The position numbers and the translations under genes were made by a program. DNA of 11,293 nt from a virus (lineage: Duplodnaviria > Heunggongvirae > Uroviricota > Caudoviricetes). Below are positions 1 through 11,293 of the stretch, piece by piece. The DNA lies in IMG/VR virus record IMGVR_UViG_2778261064_000009, positions 1 to 11,293 of that record, one strand, 5' to 3'. Positions within the stretch are counted from its first letter, which is position 1, and the number at the start of each line of letters is the position of its first letter. The notes beneath the pieces were generated by a model. The model searched no databases. It was not told the origin of the DNA and saw nothing but the letters and a program-made list of their open reading frames with translations.

Positions 1-290
1 TCGCCTTTATCACCTTTCGGACCCTGCGCACCTGCCGGGCCTGCGGCTCCCGTATCCCCTTTAGGTCCCTGTGGCCCTGCCGGGCCTGCGGCTCCCGTAT
101 CCCCTTTTGGTCCCGGTGGCCCCGCCGGGCCTGCAGCTCCCGTATCCCCTTTCGGTCCCTGCGGTCCTGCCGGACCTGTGGCTCCTGTATCCCCTTTTGG
201 TCCCTGCGGCCCCGCCGGGCCTGCAGCTCCTGTATCCCCCTTGTCGCCCTTCGGTCCCTGTGGACCTCCCGGGTCGCCCTGCTCACCTTT
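1..290. repeat. Tandem 45-bp repeats (15-aa collagen-like units) inside stf
   Basis: Near-identical 45-bp units start at 40, 85, 130 and 175 (cctgc[g/a]gctcc[c/t]gtatcccc...gccggg), with degenerate copies on either side. On the coding (minus) strand each unit encodes five Gly-X-Y triplets. The array may continue beyond the window start. Confidence 0.75.
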
Positions 291-806
291 CGGGCCGGTA
301 TCCCCCTTATCGCCCTTGTCTCCTTTATCCCCCTTTGGCCCCTGTGGGCCTGTATCACCCTTGTCTCCCTTCTGTCCCTGCGGACCCGTTGCTCCGGTGT
401 CGCCTTTCGGTCCCTGTGGTCCCACCGCCGTTTCCGCTTTCCTCGCCGCTTCCTCTGCCCTGCTGACAGCCGCATCCGCCGCGTCTTCCAGTTTTTTCAG
501 CGACTCAGGGTAATAAGTGCTGTCCTGCTCACGCAGCAAAAACGCATTCAGTGTGCCCGGCTCGTCGTCTGCCATGACGTCAATCTCGCCAGCGCATGCC
601 GGCTGACGGCCTTCCACGCACAGGGTCACACGATAACGCCCCGGCTCAACCTGCATGGTGTAACTGCCTGTTTCCCCTGGCTGACACTCCGCCACCGTGG
701 TGACTATCACCGTCTCACTCGTTCGCGTGGCTTTCAGCTCTATGGTGCAGTCCGGTACCGGTTTTCCTGTACCATCCTTCAGCACACCTGAAATCTGTAC
801 TGACAT
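1..806 (-). CDS. stf: Side tail fibre protein, N-terminal portion with collagen-like Gly-X-Y repeat region; 3' end lies beyond window start
   Basis: ATG at 804-806 on the minus strand, preceded by a G-rich stretch. Translation begins [37 protein letters not shown]..., which matches my recollection of the lambdoid Stf N-terminus ([17 protein letters not shown]...). From about residue 130 it becomes uninterrupted Gly-X-Y triplets ([32 protein letters not shown]...). The frame stays open to position 1. It is absent from the ORF track because there is no stop in the window. Confidence 0.8.
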
Positions 807-870: not shown

Positions 871-1470
871 TCAGAATTTATAACCGACACCCACAATGAA
901 ACCGTCAGTGCGCCAGTCGCCACTGCCGGAGCCTTCATAAGCAATATCAATGGCCACGGATTCGGTCGGGTTAAACTGCACGCCAGCCCCCCACGCCAGT
1001 GACGTGTTGCTGTGGCGACCGTCATCACTTCCGGTCAGCACATCGTGCGTTTTCCCCTTGTTGTCAGGTACACGGAGATAATCCCCGGAAAAAGTCGACA
1101 CTCGACTGTAAGCCACACCCACCATCGCATACGCGCTGAACCCTTCATTCACGCGCACAGACGGCCCCGCCATCACGCTGAACCAGCGGTTACGAATGGA
1201 ATCTTCATGCCAGCGGGTATCACTGTAACGGGTAAGCTGGCGATTCATGTCTCCTGCATAGCTGAATGACGTCACCAGCCCCAGCGTGTCCGTAAATTCA
1301 TAGCGGTATTTCACGTTGAATCCGGTTAAATCATCACTGCCGGACATATCAGAATGGGTATGAAGATACCCGGCACTCAGAGTGGAGTGATTCTCTGCTG
1401 CACCCGCTGGCGCACCCGCAGCGGCCAGCCAGACGACTGCAGACATAATAACAGCACATAATTTACGCAT
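871..1470 (-). CDS. lom: Lom outer-membrane protein (Ail/Lom/PagC family beta-barrel); lysogenic-conversion moron
   Basis: 199-aa ORF with an N-terminal signal peptide (MRKLCAVIMSAVVWLAAAGAPAGAAE) and the C-terminal motif SGSGDWRTDGFIVGVGYKF, which is characteristic of lambda Lom as I recall it. RBS GAGAGG lies 5 nt upstream of the ATG. It sits between J and stf as in lambda. Confidence 0.9.
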   Translation of the reverse strand: MRKLCAVIMSAVVWLAAAGAPAGAAENHSTLSAGYLHTHSDMSGSDDLTGFNVKYRYEFTDTLGLVTSFSYAGDMNRQLTRYSDTRWHEDSIRNRWFSVMAGPSVRVNEGFSAYAMVGVAYSRVSTFSGDYLRVPDNKGKTHDVLTGSDDGRHSNTSLAWGAGVQFNPTESVAIDIAYEGSGSGDWRTDGFIVGVGYKF

Positions 1471-1537: not shown

Positions 1538-4500
1538 TCAGCTGATACTGATGCCTGCGGTGGCTTTCTTCATCACCACAACCAGCAAATCGCTGATACT
1601 TGCTGTGGGATACCAGTTATTCACCAGCCATGCTGACACCGAAAACTCCAGTGTCATGTGACCGTGACCGGCAGGCATATCAATAACGCCACTGTAAATC
1701 AGCGTATTATCCAGCGCGGTACGGTTATAAATTTCAGCACCGTTTTTCCGCACTATCAGACGGCATGAGGAGTAAATATCAGTATGCTCTCTCTCATGCT
1801 TAGCGCCACTGAATGCCACCGCCGGAATAACAATCTGCCGGTCAAACGGCTGATCGTCATAAACCCTGACGGTAATGGTCCCTGATGGCCACCGCTCCGG
1901 TGCCCGGGAGTCCCGCGGGAAAGCCTTACCCACTGTTTTGACAATATCGCCTTCAATCTGGTTGGCTGACAGTTTCCCCTTAATCTGACAGTTCTCATTA
2001 ATCGTGACGTTGTTGAGCGTCCCTGAGTTCGCATTCACACTGCCACTGATATCCGCATTTTTAGCGGTCAGCTTTCCGTCCGGTGTCAGGGAAAATGCCG
2101 GTGGATTTCCACCACTGGTAATGGTGGGGGCCGTCAGGCGTTTCAGGAACACGTCGTTCATGAATATCTGGTTGCCCTGCGCCACAAACATCGGCGTTTC
2201 ATTCCCGTTTGCCGGGTCAATAAACGCGATACGGTTAGCGGCAACCAGAAACTGGCTCAGTTTACCGTCCTCCGTGTCCTCCATGCTGAGGCCAAGCCCG
2301 GCAACATAATGCTTACCGTCTTCGGTCTGCTCAATTCTGACGCCCCACATGGCATTCCATTTATCGTTAGCGTCTTTCCACTCTTTCGAAAACTCATCCA
2401 GTCTGCTGGCGTTATCTTCCGTCAGTTCAGCGTTTTCCAGCAGCTCTTTACCGAGATGTGTTTTATTAATCAGCCCTTTGTAAAAATTCAGGTAGCCTTC
2501 GGCATCATCGCTGGCCCGGCCGACGGCCTCCACAAATGCCGATTTGCCCACCAGGTTGACGCTGCGGATATAAAAATAATAATCATGGCCCGGCCTGATA
2601 TTACTGGCGGCTGTCCAGTACAGCGCCGTGCCAAGATAGCGGGCGGAGGTTTCAACCTGCCTGATATCCGCAATCTGCTGTTCCGAAAACCAGAATTCAA
2701 ACTGCACCGTCGGGTCATATACAGCCAGTTTCGGGACCGCCGTTATCTGAAAATACCCCGGTATCAGTTCAATGGTGGCAGGCGCTGCCGGGGCGTCAAT
2801 CCGGAACGTGGTGGTGGCAGGTTCGCCCTGCTGGCCATAGCTGTTAATCGCCCTGACCGTCAGGGTGTATTCCCCGGGCGGCAGACCACTGAAACGGTGC
2901 GCCGTGTCTGCGGTGATGGCGGTGGTCACCAGGCGGCTGTTTTCACCGCTTCCGCTGGTCAGACGCAGACTGAAGCTCACACCTTTCACCACCCGCGGCG
3001 TGTCCCATTTCGCCTGCGCCAGATACTGGCCGTCTGAGGCACTCACCTCCACCGTGAGGTGCTGCACTGCCGGAGGGATAACGCTGTTCAGGGTGCCTGA
3101 CTGCGGCTCAAAGCTGGCCCCGTTATCCACGATGGCTTCTTTTTCCGGTACGTGCTGCACCGCCGTGATGGCAAAGGTGCCATCCGTGTTTTCCCGGATG
3201 GCGACACAACGGAACAGGCGACGACGCAGTGACGGCAGGGAGAGTCCCCACACACCGTATGTCGCCACGCCATCAGGCAGGGTACTGACCTGTATCCGGT
3301 CCGGCGCGGGGTGTGCGGTGATGTCCACACTCATCGGCTTACCGCTGCCGTTAATCAGGTTCACCGTGGCGGTACCGGTCTCCGGCAGTGTCACCTCACG
3401 GTCCAGCGTCAGTGTGCGGCTGGCAGCGTCGATGGACAGGATACGTCCGCCGGTCAGGGTCCCGGCGTAGTCGTTATCACAGATTTCAATGATGTCTCCG
3501 GGCGTGTGCCGCAGCCCCTGTGACCCGAGCGTGAAATCCACCGTCTGCGTTTCCAGCAGTCCGGTCTTTATCACCCACAGTCCGGCACGGTGGGCCTGAC
3601 CACGACTGGTGCAGCCGAACGCATCCATCTTCAGCAGGTTGCGTCCGTAGCGCAGTATGGCTTCCGGGTCTTCCACCAGTTCCGTGGAGGTCTGCCAGCC
3701 GTTCTGCGGGTCGGTGTAATTCACCTCCACTGCCGTGTGACGGTCCTTCAGGGCGCTGAAGCTGTAGCGGAACCCCACGCCGTTATCATCCACCACCACA
3801 TCGCTGTTGGTGTACGGCCACACCACATCCGACGGGCGGTCCTGAACGAACGTCAGCGTCTGGCCGTTCCATACCGGCATACAGCGCATCGCCGAGCAGA
3901 AATCGCAGAGCACATCCCATGCCTTACGCTGCTGTGACAGGTACGCATTAAACGTCATCCGCGGCTCTGTCCCTCCGAAGCCATCCGGGACACGCTGGTC
4001 ACAGTACTGCCCGATGGCATACAGCGCCCACTTGTCCACATCCGCCGCCCCCAGACGTTTTCCCATGCCGTAGCGCGGGTGAGTCAGCATGTCCCACAGG
4101 CACCAGGCCGGATTGTTGCTGTATGCCGGTTTCAGACTGCCGTCCCAGATACCGCTGTAAGTGCGTTTTTCCGGGTCATAGTTTGACGGCACCTGGATGA
4201 TGCGACCGCGGATATGGTAGTTCACCGTCATCTGCTGGCCACCGAACTGCTCCGCATCCACCTGCAGCCCCACAATGGCCGTGTTCGGGTAGCACTGTTT
4301 CACATCGATGATTTCGGTGTATGACGACCACAGCGTTCTGTTCTGCAGCTGGTCCGTGGTGCTGTCCGCCGTCTCCCTGACCATCCGGATGTTAAAGGGG
4401 CGGGGAGGCAGATTATCCAGAATCACCGACGCCAGAAACTGCGAGGTGGTCTTGCCGTTAATGGTGACATCCTTTTCCGTCACCCAGTTACCGTTACGCT

Positions 4501-4924
4501 GTAACTGAATCAGCAGCCGGACAGAAGCCGGATTACGGTCACCCTGTGAGGTTGTCTGCACCAGTGACTGTACGCCGAAGGTGACCCGCAGGCGGTCAAT
4601 GTTCGCGGACGTAATGGTGCGCGTCACCGGCTTTGCCTTCGTCACTTCCACGCCCAGTGCGGTTTCAGCTCCGGAGGACTCAAAGCCTTCCGGCGGGGTC
4701 TGCTCCTGCTCCCCGGCGCGCCAGACCGCGGTCACACCGTGTATCACGGGATTACCGTCCGTGTCCGTCAGCGGGGTTTTGTTCACCAGGATACTCTGCA
4801 GTCCCTTCACCGGGCCTTCCACCGGTCCCTCTCCAATCGCATCAATCACGCTCATCATCTGCGTGGATTTGAGATTATCCTTTGCCTCAACCGGCGTGTG
4901 CCCCTTGCCGCCACCTTTGCCCAT
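1538..4924 (-). CDS. J: Central tail fibre / host specificity protein J (tail tip attachment protein)
   Basis: The ORF track gives 1538..4966; the true start is the ATG at 4922-4924, where the protein begins [30 protein letters not shown]. This is nearly identical to the lambda gpJ N-terminus as I remember it, and similarity extends through most of the roughly 1128 aa. RBS AAAGGGTGAG is upstream. The 14-aa extension in the ORF track is read-through of the upstream spacer. Confidence 0.95.
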
Positions 4925-4955
4925 TGTCTCACCCTTTACTGTGATAACTGTTACG

Positions 4956-4988
4956 CACAAAAACAACAGGCATCCCGGAGGATGCCTG
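4956..4988 (-). terminator. Terminator-like hairpin with U-tract in the I-J spacer (minus-strand orientation)
   Basis: A 9-bp perfect stem, caggcatcc / ggatgcctg (4967-4988), with a 4-nt loop. On the minus strand it is followed by TTGTTTTTGTG. It sits about 30 nt upstream of the J start. Confidence 0.4.
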
Positions 4989-5158: not shown

Positions 5159-5839
5159 TTACCCCTGCCGCCCGATAACCACGACCTTTCCGCCCCCGCC
5201 TTCATCACGGGTGCTGATGTCCTGGGATATACGGCGGGAGCCAACCAGCATTTCCCCGTAAGGCACCGGCATCGGGTTCCCCTGGGCAATCATGTTATCC
5301 AGCGAGGAAAAGTACGTGTTCTGTCTGCCGTTATCCGTTGCGCGGTAATCCGGTGTTTTTGCCTTCGGGGCCAGCATCTGGGCCACACCGCCCAGAATCA
5401 TGCTGGCTCCCAGTGAAAACAGCATCGTGGTGGCAGAAAAACCGCCGGCACTCAGGGCTGTACCCCATAACGCCATCGAGGCACCGGCAGTGAAGAAAGA
5501 GCCCACGATGGCTGCCGCCCCCAGCACAATCTGCAGTCCACCCTTTCCGGCCCCGGCCAGTCGCGGCACAATGTGGATGACCGTTCCCTCACCCAGCTGT
5601 TCGTGAAGACGGGCGTACACCGCCTCCGGTGCCGTGTCCTCACCGCGAATACGTATCTGGTACCAGCCTTCGTTCATCTGACGGCGGAATCCCGGCATCT
5701 GCATCGACAGGGCACGGATGGCTTCCGCTGCCGTGTTCACATACAGGCTGAGGCGGCGGCCAAATCGTTGCAAATCCCCGTGAAGGCAGATGCGTGCCAG
5801 TGGCGGTGACGCCAGACAGAATGCGTTCGTCGTTGCCAT
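5159..5839 (-). CDS. I: Tail tip assembly protein I
   Basis: 226-aa ORF starting MATTNAFCLASPPLARICLHGDLQRFGRR and containing the Gly/Ala-rich hydrophobic segment QIVLGAAAIVGSFFTAGAS and the C-terminal motif TYFSSLDNMIAQGN. Both are co-linear with lambda gpI as I recall it. Its 5' end overlaps the 3' end of K by about 100 nt in another frame. Confidence 0.9.
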   Translation of the reverse strand: MATTNAFCLASPPLARICLHGDLQRFGRRLSLYVNTAAEAIRALSMQMPGFRRQMNEGWYQIRIRGEDTAPEAVYARLHEQLGEGTVIHIVPRLAGAGKGGLQIVLGAAAIVGSFFTAGASMALWGTALSAGGFSATTMLFSLGASMILGGVAQMLAPKAKTPDYRATDNGRQNTYFSSLDNMIAQGNPMPVPYGEMLVGSRRISQDISTRDEGGGGKVVVIGRQG

Positions 5840-6490: not shown

Positions 6491-7189
6491 TTACTGCGAA
6501 AGTTTATTGATGGAAAGGAAACCGCCAAAATTAGCCACCATGCCGCGCATCTCACACCCGCGCATGCACTTGCTGCATCTGTCCTTACGGATATCGGTGG
6601 TGGGTTTATCGAACTCATCCGCCACAGCCCCGCCCGTGTAACCACACTCATCAGAGCGGTAGGTCCACATACAGGTATTCGCCAGCATAATGCGACCGGG
6701 AAACAGCGCCCCGTCCGTCTCCGTCGGTGTCGCCAGCACAAACGAGGCTGTCATGGCCGTCAGCTCTGACATCTGCTCCACCACCCAGCGGTCGCTCAGC
6801 TCCTGCTCCGGGTCCGCTTCCGGATTGCCCGCCACAAAATTCACCGCATCCAGAAAACGGGCATACACCCGGCGGCGGACCACCGTTGCCCCCACCAGGC
6901 TCTGCAGGTCCTCCGCCATCCCGGTGACCAGACCAAACAGATTGGACACCGTCAGCGACGGGCGGGCACTGCTGCCCTTCCCGTTCATCTCAAAACCGCT
7001 GCCGTCAATCGGGTATACCTGATATTGCCGCCCCTGCCAGGTGACCGCCTCCCCTTTTTCATTCAGCTCATTGCAGAAAAAATAGCGCTCACCGCCCTGC
7101 ACCGTCAGGTCAATTTCCCAGAGCACCACCCGCGGTGACTGCTCTGATTTAACCGACTCGTTCAGGCTTTCTTCATGAATATTCTGCAT
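6491..7189 (-). CDS. L: Tail tip protein L
   Basis: 232 aa, starting MQNIHEESLNESVKSEQSPRVVLWEIDLTVQGGERYFF, the same length as and co-linear with lambda gpL as I recall it. There is a C-terminal cysteine cluster (CMWTYRSDECGYTGG...CSKCMRGCEM). The start codon overlaps the M stop (TGATG). Confidence 0.9.
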   Translation of the reverse strand: MQNIHEESLNESVKSEQSPRVVLWEIDLTVQGGERYFFCNELNEKGEAVTWQGRQYQVYPIDGSGFEMNGKGSSARPSLTVSNLFGLVTGMAEDLQSLVGATVVRRRVYARFLDAVNFVAGNPEADPEQELSDRWVVEQMSELTAMTASFVLATPTETDGALFPGRIMLANTCMWTYRSDECGYTGGAVADEFDKPTTDIRKDRCSKCMRGCEMRGMVANFGGFLSINKLSQ

Positions 7190-7530
7190 CAGTTCACCAC
7201 CTGCTCAATCGTACAGCTGAAATCACTGTACCGGGCGTTATCCGTGACGCTCCACTCCCGGCACACCACCCTCACCGTCCGGTTATGTTTCGGCGGTCGC
7301 CACAAAAAGGCACGGTAACCACCATGCCAGGATAAAAATTCATCCAGCCAGCGCCGGGTTGACTCATCCGTCACCCGGAACACCGCCTGAAACGTCTTCA
7401 GTTGAGGATTCAGCCCTGTGGGGCGACGCTGTTCATAACCGTCACCAAACCGTACCCTCGCCACCGACGGTTTCTCACTCACCTGCATCCCTTCACGCGG
7501 GACCAGATGCAGCGTTTTTATCTCAGCCAC
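7189..7530 (-). CDS. M: Minor tail protein M
   Basis: 113-aa ORF containing the motif VARVRFGDGYEQRRPTGLN and ending EQVVN, like lambda gpM as I recall it. The ORF as drawn starts at a GTG (7528-7530) with GGAGGA about 10 nt upstream, overlapping the end of H. The exact start codon is uncertain. Confidence 0.85.
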   Translation of the reverse strand: MAEIKTLHLVPREGMQVSEKPSVARVRFGDGYEQRRPTGLNPQLKTFQAVFRVTDESTRRWLDEFLSWHGGYRAFLWRPPKHNRTVRVVCREWSVTDNARYSDFSCTIEQVVN

Positions 7531-10138
7531 TCAGCATTCCTCCGTCACGTCGCATGGACAGCATCACCGCCTGCACCCGCTGGTCAATCAGCTGCACAAG
7601 ACTGCCTGCCGCCTCCGGCCCTATCTGGCCATTAGTCCCGTCATTCTGAATGGCGATATGGTAGACCGGGGAATACACCAGACCCGCACTGCCGTTCATA
7701 CTGCCCACCGCTCGCACACCCAGCGAGCCATCCGCCGCCCGGGTCAGGGGCATAATGGCTTCAGGACCGGCCTCCCCCATCAGTCCCGCCCCTTTTGCAA
7801 AGGCAAAGTACGTGGGCGTATCCACAATACTGTTGCTGTACGCACTCAGGTTTGCCGAGGTATACACGCCGCCTTTTGCATTGGCCACCGCCCCGCCCAG
7901 CCAGTCACCAATGCTGCCGAGAAATCCTCCCGCACCGGACATACCGTTTGCCGCCGTCTTAATTCCGTTGACAATCGCGGCATTCATAAGAACTTTTGAT
8001 ATTTCCTGCAGCACTGATGAGGCCCAGCTGCGCCATTCCACTTTATTTCCGTTCAGCATCTCCGTGATGTTATTCACCATCCCTGAGATACCCTCCGTCG
8101 CAAGCTGTGCTGCCTGTGAGGCGTAATCGGACGCATTATCCACCCAGTTACTGAACCCCTCCTGCAGCCCTTTCTGCCAGTCCGCACGCTGCACATCCGA
8201 TTCGGCATAAAAGGCTTCCTGCTCTTTCAGACGTTCACTCAGATACTGTGCATTCTGCGCCAGAGCCTGTCTGTAAAAATCCTCACTGATATCCCCGGTC
8301 TGATACTGAGACTGAAGGTCCGCATCCTTCTGGCGGAAGCTGTCGCGGATCTGCTGCAACTCCCGCATGCGTTCTCTGGCTCGTTCCCCCTGCCCGTACC
8401 CCAGCAGTTCAGCATCATTCGACGCACGCGCAGCCGCATTCTCATTCTTCAGTGTCTCTTCCCGGGATCGCAACTGTTCCCGGATTTTTTGCTGGTCAAT
8501 CAGGGCCGCATTACGCAGCAGCTCCTGCTTCTGCATCTCCGTCAGGGTTTTCAGTTCGCCCTGCGCAGTCTGGTATTTCAGCTTCGCCAGCTCTGTATTC
8601 TGCCCCACCAGTGCCAGTTGCTCTTTCTGCTGCTTCAGCAGCCGGGAAAAACTGTCTTCCGCTTTTTCCGTCTCTGATTTTCCACCCCGGGATTTGGGTT
8701 TATTCGCCTCGTTATTGCGCCAGGCTTCCAGGGCATTACTGATATAACGCTGTCTCGCCTCCTGATACGGATCACCCACAAAACCGAGGTCATCCGCCGC
8801 ATACCCCAGCCGGACACGCTCTTTTTCTTCCCCTTTCAGTCTGGACAGGGCCAGCTCACGCTCTGTTTTTGTCAGGGCACTCTGCTGTTTATCATCCAGA
8901 GTGGCCTGTGGCAGCCGTAACGGCACATTCACCAGTCCCTGCCGCTGCTGAAGCAGTTCATTACCCAGCCCCAGCAGACGGTTGAATTCCGTATGCTGAC
9001 CATTCATAACCAGCATGGACTGGTACACCTTATTCTGCTCTGCCGCCTGCTGACGAATTAACGCCACACGACGGTCTTCCAGCCCGGCAAGCACATCCTG
9101 AATGGACTGCGCTTTTTCCTGCATCTGTGCCAGACGGGACTGCTCAACGGCAAGCTGCTCTGTTGCCTGAGCAAGCCCTTCCGTTACGGTCTTCACCGAG
9201 GTCAGATGGTTTATCATGAATCCGTCACCGGTCGTCCAGCCCGGGTTCGCCAGAACATACTGATATCCTGCGATTTTTTCCTGCAGGGATTTCACCCGAC
9301 TGGCCTGTTCATCAATCAGCCGGTTCTGCTCTGTCAGCGCCGCCCGTGTTCGTCCTTCATTATCTGAGGCTTCAGGCAAAGACATTGACGGCGTTTTATG
9401 CGCGATTTCATCTATCGTCAGTGCATACTGGCGCGCAGACTCCCTGGCCTGCTCCTGATTCTGGTACAGCGTGTACCACGCTGCAGCCCCCAGCATCACC
9501 AGTCCGGGTACGCCACCAACCAGCCCCAGCGCACCGCTCATCAGACGTGAGCCCACCGCCGTTGTACTGTTCAGCGCATTCTGGGCGGCGCTTCTGGCAG
9601 CAATATTTCTGTTCAGGCGTTCCTGTGTGGCCGCCAGACGGGCCTCTGCAGCAATCTGCATCTCCGTCCCGCGGGCTGCCGCCACGGCCTGCTGAGCACG
9701 GTACACGGCTGCCCTTGCCCGCGCCGTGGCAATCTGCGTTCCCCTGAACTGTGCTTCCGCCAGTGCCACTTCATTACGTGCTGCCGTCACAAGTCCTGCC
9801 GTGGCAGACACCGCTCCGGAGGCCATATTGCCAAAGTACCGGGCAACCCCGACGGCAACCAGCGCGCCCACGGCTGTTGCCACATTATCAATCTGTCCGG
9901 CAACACCGTTCAGCATGCCGGAGAGCGTTTTTGTCACCCCGCTGGCCTCATTCGCACCGCCCACCCAGGCCATAAAGGCGTTTTCCACCTTTGTGATACT
10001 ACTGGAAACCGTTTCCGGCATGGCCGCATATTCATCACGTAATATCCCCAGCTGGCTGATTAACGCGGGGACCACTTTATCCGCTGTCAGTTTTCCGTCA
10101 TCCGCCATTGCCTTCAGATCTTTACGGGCCACGCCCAT
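7523..10138 (-). CDS. H: Tail tape measure protein H
   Basis: Long Ala/Gln/Glu-rich, coiled-coil-like ORF with a hydrophobic segment (LGLVGGVPGLVMLGAAAWYTLYQNQ) and a C-terminus (HIAIQNDGTNGQIGPEAAGS...RRDGGMLSG) resembling lambda gpH as I recall it. The ORF track starts at a TTG at 10276, but the first 46 codons look non-coding (His/Pro-rich, poor codon character). I place the start at the first ATG (10136-10138, MGVARKDLKAMADDGKL...); the ATG at 10106-10108 is an alternative. Neither has a strong RBS. Confidence 0.8.
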   Translation of the reverse strand: MGVARKDLKAMADDGKLTADKVVPALISQLGILRDEYAAMPETVSSSITKVENAFMAWVGGANEASGVTKTLSGMLNGVAGQIDNVATAVGALVAVGVARYFGNMASGAVSATAGLVTAARNEVALAEAQFRGTQIATARARAAVYRAQQAVAAARGTEMQIAAEARLAATQERLNRNIAARSAAQNALNSTTAVGSRLMSGALGLVGGVPGLVMLGAAAWYTLYQNQEQARESARQYALTIDEIAHKTPSMSLPEASDNEGRTRAALTEQNRLIDEQASRVKSLQEKIAGYQYVLANPGWTTGDGFMINHLTSVKTVTEGLAQATEQLAVEQSRLAQMQEKAQSIQDVLAGLEDRRVALIRQQAAEQNKVYQSMLVMNGQHTEFNRLLGLGNELLQQRQGLVNVPLRLPQATLDDKQQSALTKTERELALSRLKGEEKERVRLGYAADDLGFVGDPYQEARQRYISNALEAWRNNEANKPKSRGGKSETEKAEDSFSRLLKQQKEQLALVGQNTELAKLKYQTAQGELKTLTEMQKQELLRNAALIDQQKIREQLRSREETLKNENAAARASNDAELLGYGQGERARERMRELQQIRDSFRQKDADLQSQYQTGDISEDFYRQALAQNAQYLSERLKEQEAFYAESDVQRADWQKGLQEGFSNWVDNASDYASQAAQLATEGISGMVNNITEMLNGNKVEWRSWASSVLQEISKVLMNAAIVNGIKTAANGMSGAGGFLGSIGDWLGGAVANAKGGVYTSANLSAYSNSIVDTPTYFAFAKGAGLMGEAGPEAIMPLTRAADGSLGVRAVGSMNGSAGLVYSPVYHIAIQNDGTNGQIGPEAAGSLVQLIDQRVQAVMLSMRRDGGMLSG

Positions 10139-10165
10139 ACCCGCAGCCAGTGCACGTGTGGGGTA

Positions 10166-10308
10166 GTGATCAATTCTGGGCGGGGTTAGTGCAGCCTGGT
10201 AGAACCTGCAAGCCTTGTGTGGCGCGGGGTGTGGTGATTTAGTGTGATTCTGGGCGGTTTTGTGAGAAATGACCAAAAACGCTTTTTTTTGCGCTTTTTT
10301 CTGGGCGC
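10166..10308. repeat. Three direct copies of TTCTGGGCG in the non-coding leader upstream of H
   Basis: Copies at about 10175-10183, 10248-10256 and 10299-10307. The first two share an extended match (GTGAT[caa]TTCTGGGCGG). A 9-mer recurring three times in about 150 bp is very unlikely by chance. Confidence 0.5.
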
Positions 10309-10468
10309 TTTTGATCTGGTTCTGCTACAAACTTAACGGGTTTTAAATGCTTTTAAAAAGTGTTTTATCCTTGCCCGTTTTCCTCAAGTTGTTCTCATCT
10401 GTTGTGTTCGGTTTTGTTGTGGTTATTGCTGATTAGCTAACAGCACACGCCCCGCCAAAACGAGGCGC

Positions 10469-11095
10469 TTATGCTGATTTCTTGTTTATAGGCTTAGTTT
10501 TTTGCTCCGGTGTGACGGGAACGCGATCACCTGGTGTTCCTGCTCGGATACAGGATTTGGCGCGTTGCAAAATCTCTTTGTCGGTTTCTTCATTACCAGC
10601 CAATGCCACGCAAATGGCCTCTTTTAGAGAGTCCCTTATGTTTAAGTTACGTATAACAGTTTCTATGTCTGTTTCTACTGACGTAGCCAGCCGATTCAAA
10701 ATCCCTTTTACACCGATTTCTGATGCTGCTATCGCTAACGCTTTTCGATCCTTACTACTTACAAATCCTAATAATGAAACGATTAACGCAACAGAATCAT
10801 CGTTACAATCGTACTTTGGTTCGCTTTCTTCATAATCATTCGAATAATCTCCTTGTGGTTGTTCTCCTGTAAGTAGCCACATAAGTGAAACGCCACAGGC
10901 ATCGGCAACCCTTGCTGCGCTATCAATGGTTGGGTAACTATCTCCCCTTAGGTATTTCCTGACAGATGCTTCAGATAAGCCACTACGGCGAGCAATCTCG
11001 CTTTTGTTTAGCCCCCCCATCGCTTTTTCCAGCCTTTCGCCAAAGCGTACTATTTGCTCATTATGAAAAGTACGATCATGTTTAATTGATGTCAT
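10469..11095 (-). CDS. XRE-family (Cro/CI-type) helix-turn-helix transcriptional regulator with an unassigned C-terminal domain
   Basis: 208-aa ORF with ATG at 11093-11095 and RBS GGAGA about 9 nt upstream. Residues about 25-80 (LNKSEIARRSGLSEASVRKYLRGDSYPTIDSAARVADACGVSLMWLLTGE) fit the HTH_XRE pattern. The C-terminal roughly 130 aa have no motif I recognise, and there is no obvious S24/LexA-type Ser-Lys peptidase signature. Hand-counted samples give about 35-45% GC, well below the flanking tail genes. Confidence 0.75.
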   Translation of the reverse strand: MTSIKHDRTFHNEQIVRFGERLEKAMGGLNKSEIARRSGLSEASVRKYLRGDSYPTIDSAARVADACGVSLMWLLTGEQPQGDYSNDYEESEPKYDCNDDSVALIVSLLGFVSSKDRKALAIAASEIGVKGILNRLATSVETDIETVIRNLNIRDSLKEAICVALAGNEETDKEILQRAKSCIRAGTPGDRVPVTPEQKTKPINKKSA

Positions 11096-11277
11096 AGCGT
11101 ACTATTCTCCAAATCTCATTGATAAACAAAGAAAATTTTCACAAGTCGTACTTTTGTATCAATTTCAACAAAAGTACGATTATTTTCTTGACTTCGTACT
11201 TTAGTGCGATCTATCCTTTATCACATTCGATAATCGAATTTGATTATCGAATTCGATAAACGTGAGAGGATCACACA
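11096..11277. promoter_or_regulatory. Divergent promoter/operator region between the XRE regulator gene and a plus-strand gene
   Basis: Perfect 11-bp inverted repeat TCGTACTTTTG-N12-CAAAAGTACGA (11146-11179). Related half-sites (AAAGTACGA / TCGTACTTT) lie at about 11066-11077 and 11190-11200. A sigma70-like promoter on the plus strand (TTGACT 11188-11193, about 18 bp spacer, TATCCT 11212-11217) is followed by two adjacent palindromes, ATTCGATAATCGAAT (11226-11240) and TTATCGAATTCGATAA (11243-11258), then RBS GAGAGGA (11262-11268) and ATG 11278. Confidence 0.6.
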
Positions 11278-11293
11278 ATGCAGTTGTTGAGAC
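11278..11293 (+). CDS. 5' end of an unidentified plus-strand gene divergent from the XRE regulator (truncated by window end)
   Basis: ATG at 11278 with the RBS GAGAGGA ending about 9 nt upstream, downstream of the predicted promoter and operators. Only about 5 codons (MQLLR) are visible, so the product is unknown. Confidence 0.35.

Follow-up and report, generated by a model that had tools for sequence, protein, structure and literature searches.

Probable transposition of a Mu-like prophage into the tape-measure gene of a Stx-type lambdoid prophage

In the 11,293-bp stretch of DNA analysed here (the window), a Mu-like prophage some 36-38 kb long has most probably transposed into gene H, which encodes the tape measure of a resident lambdoid prophage of the Stx type; this reading is given a rough probability of 0.93. 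Under this explanation, position 10157 would be the first base (TG...) of the left end of the inserted phage, and the 312 bp at 10157-10468 would be its attL-like end. The insertion would have begun with binding of the TTCTGGGCG cores in this end by a DDE transposase (the MuA analogue), forming a transpososome that synapses the two ends, as suggested by the arrangement of the cores. Having cut at the terminal dinucleotide, this complex would then link both ends to the target with a 4-bp stagger. The 208-aa helix-turn-helix (HTH) protein encoded beyond this end would be the lysogenic repressor, acting on 11096-11278.

The window is the complete contig PTRP01000060.1 (GCA_002965585.1, Escherichia sp. 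MOD1-EC2449). All of its full genes, namely lom, J, I, K, L, M, the tape-measure open reading frame (ORF) and the HTH gene, are carried on the minus strand (Table 1). The tape-measure ORF is separated from the HTH gene by a gap of 330 bp, and a plus-strand gene opens at 11279, after the intergenic region past the HTH gene. At its low end (window 1-806), the contig stops within a gene downstream of lom, and at its high end it stops 15 nt into a ner-like gene. Since this second break lies inside the Mu-like prophage, it suggests that a second related Mu-like copy is present in the same genome and has collapsed the assembly.

Table 1. Features of the window, with strand and supporting observations
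Feature	Position	Strand	Basis or remark
lom	871-1470	-	
J	1538-4966	-	
I, K, L	between J and M	-	
M	7189-7530	-	
H 3' part, codons 204-1080 and stop	7523-10156	-	match to BP-4795 ORF67; Pfam TMP_3
Predicted left copy of the 4-bp target-site duplication, CACG	10153-10156		7/7 relatives; far-junction protein
Left-end (attL-like) core, opening with terminal 5'-TG	10157-10320	+	alignment of 8 insertions; conservation
TTCTGGGCG copy 1, putative terminal transposase site core (L1 analogue)	10174-10182	+	18-26 bp from terminus; right-end core at same offset
L1-L2 spacer	10183-10247		almost invariant across 8 aligned insertions
TTCTGGGCG copy 2 (putative L2 analogue)	10248-10256	+	92-100 bp from terminus; invariant in alignment
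TTCTGGGCG copy 3 (putative L3 analogue)	10299-10307	+	143-151 bp from terminus; preceded by CGCTTTTTT units
Prophage repressor, 208 aa, XRE/cI-type HTH	10469-11095	-	Pfam HTH_3 and Phage_CI_repr; PHROG 3037 at E=2e-33
Predicted divergent promoter/operator region	11096-11278		repeats; sigma-70-like promoter matches
ner-like early regulator (HTH_35), first five codons	11279-11293	+	cut by contig end

Breakpoint in the tape-measure gene

Aligning the region to intact lambdoid phages, as an earlier note on this DNA had proposed, locates the break precisely. In a megablast search with window 9900-11293 as the query, Stx-type lambdoid phages (BP-4795, YYZ-2008, 2851 and many Stx1a and Stx2a phages) match at 100% over 9900-10157, where the match ends. 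Another set of sequences, from E. coli chromosomes, matches at about 97% from 10155-10157 to 11293 and shows nothing leftward. The two halves, the H side and the inserted side, are found together in no complete E. coli genome. The true discontinuity is placed at window 10156/10157, which is within the coding sequence of H and 19 nt upstream of the ATG at 10138.

The H segment of the window is identical to BP-4795 ORF67 (1080 aa) at 2619 of 2634 nucleotides (99.4%) and lacks the first 609 nt (203 codons) of that gene. Translation of the minus strand confirms the earlier observation that the H frame is closed by a TAG (10327-10325) and that its first in-frame ATG follows at 10138-10136. The earlier note had treated this ATG as a candidate start of H, which does not hold: it is the internal Met210, and the 871-aa ORF that opens there has an artefactual start. 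The Pfam TMP_3 match to this ORF agrees, with residue 1 falling at profile position 129 of 192, and the internal position of the codon explains why no Shine-Dalgarno sequence precedes it. Because H is truncated at its 5' end by 203 codons, it cannot yield a functional tape-measure protein.

In the intact arrangement of BP-4795, the tail chaperone and major tail genes lie upstream of the tape-measure gene. The window holds no such lambdoid tail module with a full-length H directly after the G/T chaperone genes; what it does hold is H codons 204-1080 followed by M, L, K, I, J and lom, and these tail genes are about 99% identical to their counterparts in complete Stx phages. The suspicion that this is not a normal T-to-H gene junction was thus well founded, as the identity of H to Stx phages stops at 10157 and another element begins. 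The earlier note had further proposed a recombination junction arising from either an insertion or a deletion. The insertion boundary stands, and the deletion finds no support, given the element terminus TG at 10157.

Insertion sites and gene content of the inserted element

Matches to complete genomes identify the sequence at 10157-11293 as part of a Mu-like transposable prophage, roughly 36-38 kb in length, of which it forms the left end. In STEC316, STEC313, B1172, E2348/69, Ec55, S13 and GF75, the same sequence forms the first ~1.1 kb of a prophage of 35.7-38.0 kb. The window covers this first 1.1 kb of the inserted element, and the transposase and the right end are known from the relatives. 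Their gene order begins with a leftward repressor, followed by an HTH_35 ner-like gene, a 660-aa transposase and an AAA ATPase. The transposase matches Pfam Mu-transpos_C, HTH_Tnp_Mu_1 and rve as well as PHROG 310 (E=3e-187), and shares 21% identity with MuA (E=5e-7). Compared with solved structures, it gives weak matches to MuA and to retroviral integrase cores and nothing stronger. The ATPase is assigned to PHROG 296, 'DNA transposition protein' (MuB-like). A DDE transposase with a Mu-type C-terminal domain and an AAA+ ATPase are thereby found near the left end in relatives that share 97% identical DNA with the window, in which these genes would lie past the contig end. Downstream of the ATPase, the relatives carry DUF3164, Mor, lysis genes, terminase and DUF935 portal-type genes, and their late region encodes a Mu gpT-like head gene together with sheath, tape-measure, baseplate and fibre genes of a myovirus tail. 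A genome of about 36-39 kb with a Mor/C-type activator and Mu-type head genes, as expected of a Mu-like phage, is thus present in the relatives.

The boundary of the element is sharply defined. When eight independent insertions are aligned, TGTGGGG is the exact point at which identity sets in; the flanking sequences, at 13-37% identity, are unrelated. Of 5426 complete E. coli genomes, 45 carry the 312-bp end, at unrelated sites, and more than 10 of the loci examined among these 45 genomes are clearly different. The interrupted genes include the holin gene of a Stx2e prophage, eutC, ydiS, phnJ, yfcC, chbG and ypdF; further insertions lie in the yjfJ-yjfK spacer, a TonB-dependent receptor gene, an RHS gene and a capsid gene. 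All seven complete copies have TG...CA ends (TGTGGGG...GTTACA), and the window end likewise reads TGTGGGG at 10157, in keeping with the TG-CA terminal rule for Mu-like phages (PMC8705779).

A 4-bp direct repeat flanks each of the seven complete copies (GTCG, CACT, AAAG, TGAT, CGCT, CATT and CTTC), so that the lineage is found at many unrelated sites, each with a short target-site duplication. A 5-bp duplication, in which one terminal base would belong to the target, was also considered and fits at most two of the first four cases, whereas the 4-bp version fits all seven. Mu usually leaves a target duplication of 5 bp and B3 one of 6 bp, according to a review (PMC8705779). A literature search for 4-bp duplications made by Mu-like phages found no paper discussing them; the SuMu paper contains no duplication data, and the sought terms are absent from PMC5977238. 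The 4-bp scar is a feature of the lineage that is already visible in public annotation (LC727895.1).

Among these copies, the one in STEC316 sits in the holin gene of a Stx2e prophage (489-566 and 38447-38707 of the STEC316 locus sequence) and is another case of a phage inserted into a phage. This insertion is expected to disable lysis by the Stx phage.

The opposite junction of the insertion in the window can be predicted from these data. If the 4-bp CACG duplication is followed by the right end of the element (TGTAAC... on the H strand), the far-junction product would consist of H residues 1-204 plus a valine and a stop codon. Exactly this 205-aa protein exists in the public protein collection, encoded on one contig of 14.3 kb, and the version of the protein predicted from a 5-bp duplication is absent from that collection. 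The 14.3-kb contig with this N-terminal H fragment is likely to come from the same assembly as the window. The 5' part of H, along with the equivalents of T, G and V and the head genes, would then lie on the far side of the element, some 36-38 kb away and on another contig, and the inserted prophage is presumably complete in the source genome.

Three other accounts of the junction can be weighed against these observations. It is unlikely that only a fragment of the Mu-like phage remains, with a deletion or rearrangement after insertion having removed most of it and the lambdoid upstream genes not simply lying 36-38 kb away. The stop of the contig 15 nt into the ner-like gene would fit such a fragment, as would the partial matches to the left end (53% coverage) that occur in some complete genomes. 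However, repeats in short-read assemblies usually break contigs inside prophages, and the exact right-junction protein on the 14.3-kb contig requires an intact right terminus, the 5' part of H and the 4-bp duplication.

The second account is a deletion or illegitimate recombination in a decaying lambdoid prophage, by which its own immunity region was fused to the middle of H and the head and proximal tail genes were lost. A cI-type HTH repressor and a divergent promoter do adjoin the tail genes, and G, T and V are missing from the contig. Such decay is nonetheless highly improbable, as the non-H side begins at the terminal TG of the element in 45 genomes, at unrelated loci and always with the same first base, and as the repressor in those genomes is followed by Mu-type transposition genes and not by lambdoid genes. 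The existence of the far-junction protein also argues against it. The third account, an assembly chimera in which H and the Mu-like end were wrongly joined, draws on the shortness of the contig and on the many repeated prophage sequences in its draft assembly. It can be almost entirely discounted: the join coincides with an exact biological terminus, the same contig is recorded in four samples and the complementary junction product exists. Transposition of a Mu-like prophage into H is accordingly the reading retained below.

Terminal repeats and immunity region

The three copies of a 9-mer, the repeated units and the T runs that had been noticed in the interval upstream of the tape-measure ORF are all present, in the form of TTCTGGGCG, CGCTTTTTT(T/C)TG units at 10280-10303 and runs of T. 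The interval itself is not the leader of H for which it had been taken, but the left end of the Mu-like prophage, to judge from its match to the relatives. The whole window contains five copies of TTCTGGGCG against 0.14 expected, a number that none of 200 shuffles reached, and any 9-mer occurring three times in a 164-bp stretch was seen in 7 of 5000 shuffles. The two additional exact copies lie within I (5389-5397, minus strand) and H (9579-9587, plus strand) and are probably there by chance. At the left end, the GCGCTTTT units and T runs form the 5' parts of extended sites of the form GCGC-W4-6-TTCTGGGCG, and the same holds at R1-R3.

The distribution of the repeats follows the ends of the element. 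From the left terminus, the TTCTGGGCG cores start at 18, 92 and 143 bp. At the right end of the same phage, whose Mu-like terminus reads ...CGCGAAGTTACA, the 8-mer TTCTGGGC is found, reading inward, at 18 and 40 bp with an inverted copy at 68 bp. Seven copies of TTCTGGGC occur in the 37.9-kb STEC316 prophage as a whole, six of them less than 150 bp from its ends. In three prophages with diverged immunity regions, the 164-bp end core remains 93-98% identical to the window and the next ~180 bp are 54-72% identical. Multiple repeats at both ends, inverted between the ends, are thus found as in Mu-like phages, by sequence only.

The TTCTGGGCG repeats are most likely the cores of transposase end-binding sites of the L1-L3/R1-R3 type. 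Since the ends lack significant similarity to Mu attL and the transposase is only 21% identical to MuA, this function is assigned from the position, symmetry and conservation of the repeats, on which the earlier suggestion of protein-binding sites also finds its best reading. By analogy with Mu alone, whose L end is bound by HU (PMC3145075), the L1-L2 spacer may be a place where a host protein such as HU bends the DNA.

Other functions were considered for the same interval. Likely operator repeats (of the AAAGTACGA type) sit at 11066-11205 and none is present in 10157-10468, so the TTCTGGGCG repeats are not taken as repressor sites. Terminator-like matches at 10275-10308 overlap the L3 site and T runs and are regarded as a by-product of repeat composition. 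A search of 9900-11293 against Rfam returned only sub-threshold noise and no family.

The repressor matches PHROG 3037, a family of transcriptional repressors. Around its divergent promoter, inverted ACAAAAGTACGA/TCGTACTTTTGT repeats are found at 11146-11157, 11168-11179 and 11194-11205, with a further one inside the repressor gene at 11066-11075, and three TTATCGAAT-type repeats with a 13-bp periodicity occupy 11218-11262. Neither type is present in 10157-10468. These two sets are likely operators of the repressor and of the ner-like protein, as their sequence and placement suggest. They could double as a transposition enhancer, as in Mu, for which such an element (the E element) has been described (PMC3145075). 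STEC316 encodes, at the position homologous to the truncated plus-strand gene, an HTH_35 protein of 89 aa, and the genes for the transposase and the MuB-like ATPase come next.

The immunity region is a mosaic: relatives of the E2348/69 type share 10157-10642 (attL plus the 3' portion of the repressor gene) at 93-97% identity and lack the 5' DNA-binding part of the window's repressor, its operators and ner (10643-11293).

A regulator-controlled, tail-only cluster of the tailocin type had been raised as a less likely option; the regulator would be that at 10469-11095, and the leader would supply its binding sites. The contig does carry tail genes without head genes, next to a regulator on the same strand. 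However, H is short by 203 codons and the tail genes match their counterparts in complete Stx phages at about 99% identity; furthermore, the supposed binding sites recur, in inverted orientation, at the opposite end of a phage of 38 kb, and the repressor has repeats of its own at 11066-11262. A complete tail gene set with a dedicated regulator and without head genes is not what the window contains, as the regulator is the Mu-like prophage's own repressor. A tailocin-like cluster is therefore extremely improbable, and neither of the origins first envisaged, decaying remnant or tailocin, finds support in the combination of a truncated H, Stx tail genes of the intact type and a Mu-like terminus.

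The repressor gene is co-directional with the truncated H and with M, L, K, I, J and lom, and the terminator-like signals between them are weak. Transcription in the lysogen could as a result continue past the left end and into lom and the lambdoid tail genes.

Comparison with known phages and implications

The element resembles Mu in organization. Both have 5'-TG...CA-3' ends, a repressor gene that adjoins the left end and is transcribed towards it (as is Mu c), a divergent early promoter and then genes for a ner-like protein, a DDE transposase and an AAA ATPase (ner, A and B in Mu). Both also insert at apparently random sites with a short target duplication. Each Mu end has three MuA-binding sites with differing spacings, and cleavage occurs at the terminal CA (PMC3145075). 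The element likewise has three repeats per end, the terminal one about 20 bp from the tip, and shares with Mu an R1-R2 spacing of 22 bp, an inverted R3 and an L1 that is far from L2-L3. The cores of Mu itself lie at 21, 126 and 166 bp on the left and at 21, 43 and, inverted, ~57 bp on the right.

The differences from Mu lie in sequence and in detail. The core motif is RCGAAA in Mu and TTCTGGGCG here, the L1-L2 spacing is 105 bp in Mu and 74 bp here, that of L2-L3 is 40 bp in Mu and 51 bp here, and the duplication is 5 bp in Mu versus 4 bp here. Besides the low identity between the transposases, the XRE/cI-type repressor has no sequence similarity to Mu Repc. A global alignment of attL with Mu attL is not significant (z = 1.1), and the 9-mer TGCAAGCCT shared by the L1-L2 spacers of Mu and the window, considered as a sign of homology, is within chance expectation. 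The nucleotide or high protein similarity to Mu in MuA, Repc and the att ends that would mark a member of Muvirus is not found.

The prophage that occupies eutC in EPEC E2348/69 belongs to the same lineage, as do its relatives in 45 complete E. coli genomes. With an attL 97% identical to that of the window, they have the same termini, motifs and gene order and the same 4-bp duplication; copies of the E2348/69 type differ in having another immunity region, with the match ending at window 10642, and other insertion sites. A more distant parallel is the Sp18-like phage Mu_JNE122137 inside the Stx1a phage LC727895.1, which is also a Mu-like insertion in a Stx/lambdoid E. coli prophage and for which the depositors annotated a 4-bp duplication. 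A different 9-mer, TTTGATACC, occupies the identical offsets of 18 and 40 in this phage (2094-2300 and 41230-41430). In contrast, the transposases of Sp18-like phages are about 45% identical to that of the present lineage, and the annotated right terminus in LC727895.1 is ...TATA rather than ...TACA. The nearest phage transposases, at no more than 50% identity, are those of Pseudomonas VW-6B, Klebsiella ST405-OXA48phi1.1, Yersinia vB_YpM_Tongde and Haemophilus SuMu, which are likewise Mu-like transposable phages with the transposase near one genome end. None of the deposited phage genomes matches the attL or repressor DNA.

Mu-like insertion into Stx prophages is an ordinary event that has already been published. 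In STEC, Mu-like phages have been reported within prophages, including Stx phages, with 6 of 10 copies in mobile elements (PMC10132054), and insertions in Stx and other prophages are also described in PMC12831630.

For annotation, the finding means that the 871-aa 'tape-measure protein' is a 5'-truncated fragment and that the adjacent HTH gene comes from a different prophage. For the lambdoid prophage, it means that tail assembly has been inactivated by insertion of a phage into a phage, and not by deletion decay or by conversion to a tailocin. Sequence alone can reveal the end of a transposable phage, through a TG at the terminus, a repeated core whose offset is fixed at about 18-26 bp, and the inverted form of that core at the opposite end.

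The analysis also supplies predicted end-binding sites and a 4-bp duplication for an uncharacterized Mu-like lineage that about 1% of the complete E. coli genomes carry, EPEC E2348/69 among them. The chances are about even that the present and Sp18-like lineages are natural variants of the Mu-type transpososome, with another end core (TTCTGGGCG) set in the L1-L3/R1-R3 geometry of Mu and a stagger of 4 bp rather than 5 bp. If so, and provided that the biochemistry is new ground, they would offer a comparative system in which to ask how the target stagger is determined in transposases of the Mu family (RNase H-fold DDE).
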